A DNA stretch of 64,000 bases from Octopus vulgaris (taxonomy: Eukaryota), in contig OX597832.1 in NCBI GenBank assembly GCA_951406725.2, positions 62,434,001 to 62,498,000 on the forward strand. Reading direction: 5' to 3'. The notes under the pieces were generated by a model. It had not been told where the DNA came from, made no database searches, and saw nothing but the letters and a program-made list of their open reading frames with translations. Position numbers and translations under genes: made by a program. Below are positions 37,979-42,098 of this stretch, one piece after another (the first letter of the stretch is position 1; the number at the start of each line of letters is the position of its first letter).

Positions 37979-38187
37979 ATTGCCTGTGTTTGTTCCCTCA
38001 TCAGCGCTTGACAACCGAAGCTGCTGTGTTAACGTCCTGTAACTTAGTGGTTCTGCAAAAGTGACCGATAGAATAAGTACTAGGCTTACAAAGAATAAGT
38101 CCCAGGGCAGGTCGATTCGTTCGGCTAAAGGAGATGCCCCAACATGGCCGCAGTGAAATGACTCAAACAAGTAAAAGAATAAAAGTA
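37719..38187 (+). mobile_element. SINE family B
   Basis: As 32766-33189. Confidence 0.88.
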
Positions 38188-38189
38188 TA

Positions 38190-38365
38190 TGATTGACCGC
38201 TAAATCCACAAGTTCTTTTTATTCTCTCTCTGTTTATTTCCTCCTGTTCGTCTCTGTTGAGAGCGTAGGCTCGAAACGTAAAACACTTTCTCACCTTCCC
38301 GAGCATCAAAAGAATACGGATGTTCGTTGTATATACACCTGTCTTCGTCTTTTGTTTTTCTGTAA

Positions 38366-38371
<6 letters not shown>
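38190..38371 (+). mobile_element. Penelope-like 3' end with hammerhead-like motif at 38254-38280, ending in (TA)n
   Basis: CTGTTGA-gagc(gtag)gctc-GAAA-cg-TA. Downstream cacctgtcttcgtcttttgttt is shared with 8705-9504. Confidence 0.65.
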
Positions 38372-38440
<69 letters not shown>

Positions 38441-39304
38441 TTTTATGTATGTATGTATGTATCACTGCACCTGTACGTATAATCGCTGTTCTTTGGTGTT
38501 GAATAAGTCTCGTAGGCGACAGGTATTTCCCATCGGGTACTAGGTTCAGTAGATGTCGATCATTTCAGGCCGAACGTATGAGTAGTCTCCCCTTGCTAAT
38601 TTAGAGTTTCTAGTACTAAGAATTACGGCTAAGCCTTAAGAGTGTTTTAGCAACTAATGTTATACAGCTATACTCGATGGTAGAACTATCATGATATTTC
38701 ATTTCTAATGTAGCTGAAAACGTTGTATTGTGCATAAACTCTATAGATGAAGATCAACAGCTAATGGTATTTTTGATTAGCCAGAAAGTTCCTCGCTTTT
38801 AATTGTGACATATCAGTCCTGTTTCCGTTTTAAAGCGTACTGTCAGCTGTTACAATTAGTCTATTGTCTTGCAGAGAAAATACGACTGCCCTGTGCTCTC
38901 AGCAAGAAAATGTCATTGTACGGAATACAATAGAGAATGCTCATTATAAACACTTCAGTAACAGGGATCTCCACCGCTAATTTTCAATATACTTCTTCTC
39001 TAAGAAGGTATCCCATGTGTATTTTATACATACAACGCGAACAGTCTACTTTTGCATTTCAGATCGACCGCTATCATTAGAGAGGCATGAAAAAAAAAAA
39101 AAACGTGTATGAGGACTAGTAAATAGTAAAAACCTTCAGATTTATTCAGTAAAAAGATAGAGAAAAACCGACCCACAACAAAAGGAGTAACAACATCTGT
39201 GTAAATAAAGCAGATATCCGAAAGCCCAATAGGACTAGGACATGAAAAAGTAACAATGAAAAAAACCAACAATAATAACATAAAAAAACATGCGAAACAT
39301 GCCA

Positions 39305-39384
<80 letters not shown>

Positions 39385-39389
<5 letters not shown>

Positions 39390-39961
39390 AAATACTAAAT
39401 TTCTAAATCTCTCGAAGAAACATGTACGGTGGTGGGGCGATAGAATGGTTGTATACTGTCAATCTAACAAGAACGTGACAGTAGGGAGGGTACACCACCG
39501 CTGTATAGCCCTAGGAAGTATCGACGCCTCCTGATGGCTTTGACACATTTTTCCCTATGTCCTTATATACATTTACGAAGGGGAGACAAACACCCCCGGC
39601 CGCACCACCGTACATGTCTCTACGAGAGATTTAGAAATTTAGTATTTCTTATTTTGATAATCAGTGAATAGACTTCACTGAATTATAGATATATACAATA
39701 CGAAGTCGAGACAAATATCGCCAGCTGACCGGTGTCTGCTACTCTACGCCGATGAAGGACAATGATCCTGAAACACGTTACCCTAGATGCAGCTCCGGCA
39801 GCCGGGGGTGTTTGTCTCCCCTTCGTAAATGTATATAAGAACACAGGGAAAAATGTGTCAAAGCCATCAGGAGGCGTCGATGCTTCCTAGGGCTATACAG
39901 CGGTGGTGTACCCTCCCTACTGTCACGTTCGTGTTAGATTGACAGTATACAACGATTCTAT
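39385..39961 (+). mobile_element. ~363-nt hammerhead-like unit (39599-39961) preceded by an inverted end-to-start junction fragment, within (TA)n
   Basis: 39385-39438 is the reverse complement of 39599-39652, and 39440-39600 is the reverse complement of 39801-39961. The motif tctacg-CCGATGA-agga(caatga)tcct-GAAA-cacgttac-cctaga lies at 39743-39787. Confidence 0.75.
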
Positions 39962-39984
39962 ATATATATATATATATAAATAAG

Positions 39985-40139
39985 ATGGCGAGGTGGCAGA
40001 ATCGTTAGCACGCCAGGCGAAATGCGTAGCCGTATTTCGTCTGCTGTTACGGACTGGGGTCGATGTAATCGACTTAATCCGCTTGTATGTCCTTGTTTGT
40101 CCCCTCTATGTTTAGCCCCTGGTGGGTGATAAAGAAACA
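39985..40139 (+). mobile_element. SINE family A2 with internal deletion
   Basis: Family A head joined at gttacg to the A2 tail ttaatccg...tttagcccc...aaagaaa. Confidence 0.8.
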
Positions 40140-40466
40140 TATATATATATATATGTATATATGTGAGTGTGTGTGTGTGTGTGTGTGTGTAGAGAGAGAG
40201 AGAGGGAGAGAGAGATCTATAGATAGAAATAGATAGAGAGGTAAACAGATAGATAGATAGATAGATCTTTAAATTGTTTCAGCTTTAAACCTGTGATCAT
40301 GCTGCAGCGTATTATCACTTTCCTTTTTTTTTTCTTTCTGTTTGATTCAGTCCATGCTGGATCCAACTCTGAAGGATTTTATTTGCATAAATCGCCCCTC
40401 GTATTTATCGCTTTAAGTCTTGTAGTTATCGAATTGAATTACATACACATATTTATGCATGTATAT

Positions 40467-40511
<45 letters not shown>

Positions 40512-40512
<1 letters not shown>

Positions 40513-41095
40513 CTTTTACTCTTTTACTTGTTTCAGTCATTTGACTGCGGCCACGCTGGAGCACCGCCTTTAATCGAACAACTCGACCCCGGGACTTATT
40601 CTTTTGTAAGCTTAGTACTTATTCTATCGGTCTCTTTTGCCGAACCGCTAAGTAACGGGGACATAAACACACCGGCATCGGTTGTCAAGCAATGCGAGGG
40701 GGACAAACACAGACACACAAACACACACACAAACACACACACACACATGCATATATATATTTATATATATATAATTAGTGAATGGAAGAAATGGAGTTGA
40801 ACGAAGATTGTACAGAATTCATTTTATTACATTCTACACATGTTTCAAAGGCCACAATTTTCCAAATTCTGATTAAATGTAATAAAAGGAATTCTGTACA
40901 ATCTTCGTTCAACTCCATTTCTTCCATTCACTAATTATATTAAACTTCAATTATCCGCACTAACGCACGGTTGCAACACCATATGGTCTTATCTCCAACC
41001 GTGTTTTTTTCTGCTGTGATTTTTGCTACCCAGGTATCGGTTAAACTTTTGAATAATCTGTAACAAGAAAATTCATCTTTCCATTTCAACAAATA

Positions 41096-41187
<92 letters not shown>

Positions 41188-41337
41188 TACGATGGGCTTC
41201 TTTTCAGTTTCCGTCTACCAAATCCACTCACAAGGCTATAGTAGAAGACACTTGCCCAAGGTACCACGCAGTGGGACTGAACCCGGAACCATGTGGTTGG
41301 TAAACAAGCTACTTACCACACAGCCACTCCTGCGCCT
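40512..41337 (-). mobile_element. SINE family B split at its internal microsatellite by a ~320-bp insertion
   Basis: 3' half at 40512-40750, 5' half at ~41185-41337. Confidence 0.88.
40769..40940. repeat. 65-bp inverted repeat (1 mismatch, 42-nt loop), part of an insertion spanning 40769-41092
   Basis: 40769-40833 pairs with 40876-40940. Confidence 0.92.
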
Positions 41338-41358
41338 ATATATACATATATATGTGTG

Positions 41359-41396
<38 letters not shown>

Positions 41397-42098
41397 TGCA
41401 CACATTTAAGTATGTAAGAATATGTATGCATATGCTTACTTATTAATCACGTAACATTTCATATTTTGTTCACAACAAAATTGCCCCTATATTTAATTAA
41501 TAAACTCAATTCAATAACATTAATATTCATACACAACGTTTTTTACTAACACCCTCTCGCACAAATTTTCTTCACTTATTTTTCTTTCAGGAAAATTCCT
41601 CGCGTGAACTCGTATATATTTTATAATTAACGCCTTTACACGCAAACATGTTTAAAATATACATTACTTACATTTTAAATACATGTACACTTAATTCAAT
41701 AAAATTAATTACATTCGGGCGGAGGTTTTCTTTGTAAGCACAATTTTCTCTATTCTTGTATATAATGTTGTATTCATTGCCGTTAACCAGCGCAAACCCC
41801 ACCTCATATTGATGTTCCTTTTTAAGGGATTGTATTCAAATGAAGTTCTTTTAACAAAAAAGTTCTAACGCTGACTCTTTTCACCATATTTTTCTATGTG
41901 TCATCATGGTTCAATATTCCCCGGAAGTTCTGTTATTCATACTGTTTTTACCTTCTTTTATTTATCGCTTTGGCTGAAAACACGAGAGTAACACTTAGAG
42001 CGAGGTTTTTGAAAGCTTCTCCATTCGACGAAACAATATTAACATTGTGTTGATATGGCAGTGTGTAGCGTGAGTTTGAGTATATAAATATGATAATA

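Follow-up and report, generated by a model that had tools for sequence, protein, structure and literature searches.

Metazoan non-LTR retrozymes are built on a non-coding unit of 170-400 nt (350-390 nt in mussels) that carries a type I hammerhead; they occur as head-to-tail copies with longer target duplications, in genomes that also contain Penelope-like elements (PLEs). In the accessible parts of the sources they are proposed to be passengers of PLEs (PMC7229834; bioRxiv 10.64898/2026.07.22.740005). The repeat of Octopus vulgaris described here shares the unit size, the hammerhead, the head-to-tail copies, the longer target duplications and the presence of PLEs in the genome. It also shares those of EN+ PLE insertions, namely partial tandems, an inverted 5'-truncated copy, a tail at one end and a bias towards (TA)n; the target duplications of EN+ PLEs are reported at 8-10 bp in the available sections of PMC8557442 and PMC3846280.

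A third point of comparison is PAc, the protein of an Anolis Poseidon PLE studied in vitro. According to the available text of PMC11167929, its reverse transcriptase (RT) has two internal start sites, one on either side of the tail, both strands of an AT-rich target are cut and extended, no strand preference is seen for the start sites, and the protein is predicted to be a dimer. The octopus insertions likewise have a tail bounded by two ends and an AT-rich target, as would fit two such starts and extension of both strands. In the portions available of PMC8557442, PMC7229834 and PMC11167929, the origin of tandem and inverted PLE insertions and of their tail is named as an open question, as is the mobilisation of animal retrozymes by PLEs. 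The octopus family bears on both, and its two-armed insertions are likely the trace of a Penelope-type enzyme that used both DNA strands to copy a single RNA, uncut and possibly circular.

Layout of the locus

The window, that is, the whole stretch of DNA analysed (64,000 nt), is located on C19 of a 2.8-Gb genome. An earlier note had described an insertion within it as (TA)n, inverted A and inverted B, followed by A, C and B in forward orientation and again (TA)n, and self-comparison of the locus bore this layout out. The inverted A (39385-39438) matches the forward A (39599-39652) over 54 nt at 94.4% identity; the inverted B (39440-39603) matches the forward B (39798-39961) over 164 nt at 96.3% (E 2e-74). 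In the minus-strand reading, a single base (39439) separates the end of B from A, a junction absent from the forward copy. The unit is numbered here from the start of A, its positions being window positions minus 39598, and one less after 39914.

The minus-strand or T arm has as its outer end the 54-nt tail A, which stops at unit position 54, as most family copies do too; its B segment covers unit ~200-362 and enters A across 39439. The tail-less or P arm (39604-39961, plus strand) runs through A, C and B, unit ~5-362, and ends at the upstream of two start sites. The arms lie head-to-head and overlap by 5 nt with one mismatch (39599-39603), so that the forward arm begins at about unit position 5. 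The flanking (TA)n target spans 39306-39387 on the left (period 2, 41 copies) and 39958-39978 on the right. No frame of 120 aa is present, and the locus is an ordinary, dead copy of a hammerhead-bearing repeat; the hairpin predicted from its two arms would form if the locus were transcribed. The inversion on integration that had been proposed is thus present, but it marks no special event, two-armed insertion being the normal form of the family.

Two neighbouring features were observed in the window. A stretch directly after the right TA run (39984-40135) is presumably SINE-like, and a second, unrelated inverted repeat adjoins a TA run at 40775-40945; the latter, for which Rfam gives a weak microRNA match, may be another two-armed PLE stub.

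A young repeat family with a hammerhead

The unit is non-coding, has a period of 363 nt and occurs head-to-tail, in keeping with the retrozyme-sized, hammerhead-bearing unit that the earlier note had postulated. A first look at the genome gave 2114 candidates, the best copies at 95-98% identity, and 32 full-length copies taken from the best matches had a mean identity of 98.5% to their majority. Exact genome matches numbered 1921 for a 21-mer at the B end, 984 for the B-A junction and 751 for a motif in the tail, with none for the reversed control of each. The adjacency of B and A, expected to recur elsewhere, is therefore ordinary sequence of the family. The family is young and high-copy (over a thousand copies); its members are scattered, for the most part truncated, and often have two arms.

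Related units at 59-83% identity were also observed (L270, L274, L278, L285, L287, L288, L290-L296), and in several of them the core has the canonical U4 and the stems covary; by their sequences they represent a superfamily of retrozymes in this genome. A literature search over openly accessible main texts found no octopus retrozyme. The family is new, retrozyme-like and of PLE type.

A decayed hammerhead had been reported in C, and the motif is real. It is a type I hammerhead on the plus strand (39743-39787), composed of stem I (39743-39748 with 39782-39787), the core (39749-39755), stem II (39756-39769) and a short palindromic helix III. The family majority has a 6-bp stem I, C at core position 4, a 4-bp stem II and a GUC triplet, and its cut site follows 39781, that is, unit position 183. 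Relative to this majority, the locus copy is damaged at one stem I base (39747) and two cleavage-triplet bases (39779-39780), leaving it without one stem I pair and without the triplet. The full majority core was found in 68 of 92 copies that cover the hammerhead. The U4C core, present throughout the family, is a family trait rather than decay; in the available sections of PMC3088659, U4C is reported to reduce hammerhead activity in vitro.

In a hand-picked set of 13 related hammerheads, drawn from the family and from its relatives, 92.8% of cells were paired, and two-sided changes occurred at 8 of 13 pairs as compared to at most 2 in slid-partner controls. An intact family copy scored 14.3 bits against Rfam RF00163, below the cut-off of 34. 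Over positions 38000-41500 Rfam returned microRNA matches only, microsatellite-driven, and no hammerhead, and the fold of 39715-39800 on its own was unremarkable (z -0.69). A cut at unit 183 would yield a self-cleaved monomer that runs from 184 to 183 with B-A internal. This rules out B-A as the end-to-start joint of the monomer, as had been supposed; the forward arm, not the arm with B-A, crosses that joint.

Fixed ends and their pairing

Copies end at unit ~362 (P) or unit ~54 (T), scored here as 340-3 and 40-63, respectively, and 151 of 233 such canonical ends abut a TA run. In a first, similarity-chosen set of 85 insertions, 51 of the 56 two-armed members had one end of each kind (P/T). 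To avoid similarity bias, chromosome C1 was then searched for the B-end 21-mer and all 98 exact matches were retrieved; they gave 72 insertions, 39 of them two-armed. Thirty-two of the 39 were P/T (27 of these new relative to the first set), none was T/T or P/P, and seven had one or both ends non-canonical. The one-armed insertions on C1 ended at P in 19 cases, at T in 13 and elsewhere in one. Free choice of ends would yield about half P/T, as compared to the 32 of 32 observed (binomial p 5e-10).

Altogether, the 156 insertions included 93 two-armed ones, of which 81 were P/T, one P/P (with one end at 343), none T/T and 11 other. Where both ends are canonical, 81 of 82 insertions thus have the tail on one arm and not on the other. 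Three relatives, 66-73% identical, are likewise P/T. Loss of palindromes would not explain this pairing, since P/T insertions are palindromic as well. Our search of openly accessible main texts likewise found no statement of strict P/T pairing.

When insertions scored as pure (TA)n are set aside, 38 two-armed ones remain, and 20 of these had a direct repeat of 11-15 nt at both ends, lengths that include a few bases common with the element; such repeats argue that both arms came from one event. The arms overlap at their junction by at least 2 nt in 49 of 88 insertions, against 16% for random exact matches, a figure that is indicative only because BLAST ends can contain mismatches.

Evidence for one uncut template

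Comparison of the two arms across the 93 two-armed insertions found 185 variants in common and 311 differences (37% shared), whereas 1000 shufflings of the arm pairings gave a mean of 4.9% and a maximum of 12%. At 30 non-CpG markers the arms were all-variant 175 times and mixed 42 times, against 366 mixed expected if independent. At the locus, a 1-nt insertion at 39914 recurs in the other arm at 39487 and is private, with one carrier among the 122 insertions covering the site; the remaining arm-arm differences are also all private. Both arms were likely copied from one template, although gene conversion between arms could raise the sharing of variants.

This template was uncut. Among 102 arms on C1, 33 cross the hammerhead cut, whereas 3 have their end no more than 5 nt away from it; 13 are longer than one unit, and the longest arm seen measures 1252 nt, or 3.4 units. 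A cut linear monomer was considered as template and rejected, there being no pile-up of arm ends at the cut. The tandem units within an arm share 91 markers and do not share 41, with five rare variants also shared, which argues against tandems built from separate insertions.

The earlier note had called for a circle or a head-to-tail multimer. The locus alone needs neither, a linear RNA of ~413 nt (~1.14 units) being enough; the case for a circle or multimer comes from other copies. We lean slightly towards a ligated circle that was traversed more than once, rather than an uncut linear read-through or multimer, and regard it as an even bet. That the template was always a linear uncut RNA, either a terminally redundant copy or a multimer transcribed from a genomic locus, with the same priming and no circle, is a serious contender, though its odds fall short of even. 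Genomic copies of 2-3.4 units occur, the U4C core is one with reduced activity (PMC3088659, in the sections available), and the accessible text of PMC11167929 describes unprocessed RNA as the main substrate of the anole PLE in vitro. Four two-armed insertions moreover contain pieces of an ORF1-only element (L310, L312, L315, L316), and L310, L312 and L316 are again P/T; composite RNAs were thus copied by the same route, making long linear templates plausible.

Against an exclusively linear template stand several observations. The B-A junctions and tandem arrays that the note proposed to search for gave different results: the junctions were plentiful, as counted above, but no long array was present among 40 scored of 2573 candidates, although arrays may have been collapsed or lie among the unscored ones. 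Public contigs from runs presumed to be RNA are broken up by the repeat and give no information on strand, circles, expression or the junction of this locus. Most copies are truncated, so arrays would need regenerating. Tandem units share their markers and a few insertion-private variants, 63 5' flanks have no common host sequence except the ORF1-only element and one 45-nt match, and the hammerhead stems covary across relatives.

Proposed priming from both target strands

Our preferred reading, to which we assign a probability of roughly three in four, is that the locus is a non-coding hammerhead repeat, likely a non-autonomous passenger of a PLE, and that both arms likely arose in one event primed from both nicked strands of (TA)n. 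The family, its ends, the pairing rule, the shared variants and the target duplications in other copies are direct observations, and the order of events behind them would be as follows. A PLE protein, probably a dimer, would nick both target strands ~11-15 nt apart. One 3' end would start reverse transcription at site P (unit 362), while the second would use site T (unit 54) of the same RNA, 55 nt downstream. The two cDNAs would extend upstream through the hammerhead site without stopping, and their 3' ends would then be fused in head-to-head orientation, in many cases at a short stretch of identical bases. Tail A, as the stretch between the two starts, would in consequence be found on exactly one arm. 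Counting against this reading are the 42 mixed marker observations, the lack of a strand preference in the PAc assay, the many arm pairs of nearly equal reach and the failure to match the unit to a mobilising PLE in the loci searched.

A single cDNA primed at the tail end might instead fold on itself and be copied back, giving a second arm that ends at P. Such self-priming is proposed for PLE palindromic junctions in the available part of PMC3846280, it accounts for the shared variants, and the two arms reach nearly equally far in 36 of 76 simple P/T pairs (17.5 expected), and in 20 of 31 on C1. In 23 of the 76 pairs, however, the P arm is more than 30 nt longer than the T arm, and at the locus it is longer by ~199 nt. 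The T arm of the locus, moreover, contains the B-A junction and the P arm does not, so that copying one from the other, in either direction, would also require a large deletion. We consider fold-back improbable.

Still less credible is a common start of both arms at the tail end, followed by trimming of the tail from one arm by an endonuclease or by repair during resolution. It predicts the same P/T pattern, site P resembles the AT-rich target, and the tail is ascribed to EN-mediated resolution in the sections available of PMC8557442. Purified PLE protein nevertheless starts at both sites directly (PMC11167929, in its accessible text), direct repeats abut both ends, and not one T/T survivor was seen among the 93 two-armed insertions.

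Candidate PLE partners

The priming from both strands that we prefer would require a PLE enzyme, and the genome carries PLEs that combine an RT with a C-terminal GIY-YIG domain. Frames of this kind, 781 aa in length, are present in many copies; this family ends in (TA)n, has two 3' ends ~36 nt apart and, among 22 loci, includes one copy with an inverted P arm and a sense T arm. The 781-aa frames (L136-L149) represent a young autonomous family with a CxxxxCxxC linker, a type that is Neptune-like by the available text of PMC8557442. The tail of the unit shows a weak motif likeness to the tail of the 781-aa family (shuffle p 0.006, with scoring chosen post hoc). The unit had no blastn match in 45 GIY-YIG loci and no match of note in a second, C-rich PLE family; a search for an autonomous partner in four further stretches was likewise negative.

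It is very unlikely that the unit is a mere terminal repeat (pLTR) of an autonomous PLE, with its copies as truncated ends. In its favour, the architecture is identical, only 150 of 6136 GIY-YIG candidates were scored, and L336 has a T end adjoining a 5'-truncated PLE frame. Yet successive turns of the unit, as many as 3.4, run directly into one another (A-C-B-A) and leave no frame in between, and no RT and GIY-YIG frame was found within the element; none of the 63 5' flanks leads into a shared PLE frame, and the PLE 3' regions examined do not match the unit. No autonomous PLE containing the unit was found in the candidates scored. The joint in L336 (6629 and below), where the tailed arm meets directly a 5'-truncated C-rich PLE frame ending in (TA)n, may reflect a template switch or a nested insertion.

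An assembly artefact or later rearrangement can be set aside: inverted repeats in microsatellites are difficult to assemble and no public contig was shown to bridge the junction, but the locus arms differ at several private sites, and the two-armed form, complete with fixed ends and direct repeats, recurs in 93 of 156 insertions.

An ORF1-only element at the hammerheads

Outside the window, copies of the unit are interrupted at ~116-135 by an element of 1.6-1.8 kb with a single frame of 410-480 aa, an ORF1-only element whose insertions carry 10-17-nt duplications. Copies were observed on C1 and elsewhere (L242:1673-3200, L264, L266, L267, L268, L217, L303-L308, L326), and others are found in arrays without the 363-nt unit (L330-L334). 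The frame has a weak zf-CCHC match (E 0.007), its look-alikes in the Atlas are CCHC/RRM and ZCCHC3-like proteins at 0.90-0.93, and one homologue was found, a CCHC protein of Octopus bimaculoides. The 3'-end motif has 132 exact matches. Among the first 30 of these, a hammerhead core follows within 55 nt in 19, against a background of 1.4%; 4 are followed by a target remnant and another element, and 7 by other sequence.

The element looks site-specific and HAL1/Tx1-like, a label that draws in part on PMC4494074. No RT partner was found, and the search of openly accessible main texts returned no Tx1-like element that targets hammerheads. Tentatively, and with more doubt than confidence, we suggest a three-tier chain of PLE, retrozyme and hitchhiker. 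A PLE dimer would always match each of the two target strands with its own start site, both sites lying on one circular retrozyme RNA that is read round, with the family as the fossil record of this step; an ORF1-only retroelement would insert specifically at the hammerheads and then be carried along in the retrozyme RNA.

Comparison with known systems

The octopus family differs from metazoan retrozymes in its scattered, largely truncated and frequently two-armed copies, in a maximum of 3.4 units observed and in its U4C core; its circles and self-cleavage are putative. As far as their accessible text goes, the retrozyme papers infer mobilisation by PLEs from co-occurrence and pLTR homology; the octopus insertions carry a PLE signature at their ends.

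In twin priming of L1, the second target strand primes on the RNA, and the inverted 5' part is joined by microhomology. The second primer of L1 lands at variable internal sites, while the second site of the octopus family is fixed, 55 nt from the first. Unlike in L1 twin priming, both octopus arms copy the same stretch.

For PAc, no per-target pairing of sites is reported in the available text of PMC11167929, where the start site is not homologous to the cut DNA; in the octopus family, the end of the element often matches the target over a short stretch. Non-autonomous PLEs of Chlamys such as MRC1 resemble the octopus unit in being non-autonomous, in their pLTRs and in their head-to-tail insertions (PMC8557442, in the sections available). 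They share 3' sequence with an autonomous partner, whereas none was found for the octopus unit, which has a hammerhead. Compared with EN+ PLEs, the octopus unit has no ORF and its tail is 54-55 nt in length rather than 30-40.

The value of these data lies in the family-wide pairing rule and the evidence for a single template, not in the single locus: both arms are traced to one uncut template, the rule is a direct prediction for the existing in vitro PLE assay, and the unit is a small natural substrate. Tandems, an inverted arm and a tail at one end are published PLE architecture, in which the tail is called optional or often at one end by the accessible parts of the EN+ PLE sources; what the octopus family adds is a strict pairing that turns this qualitative description into a rule.
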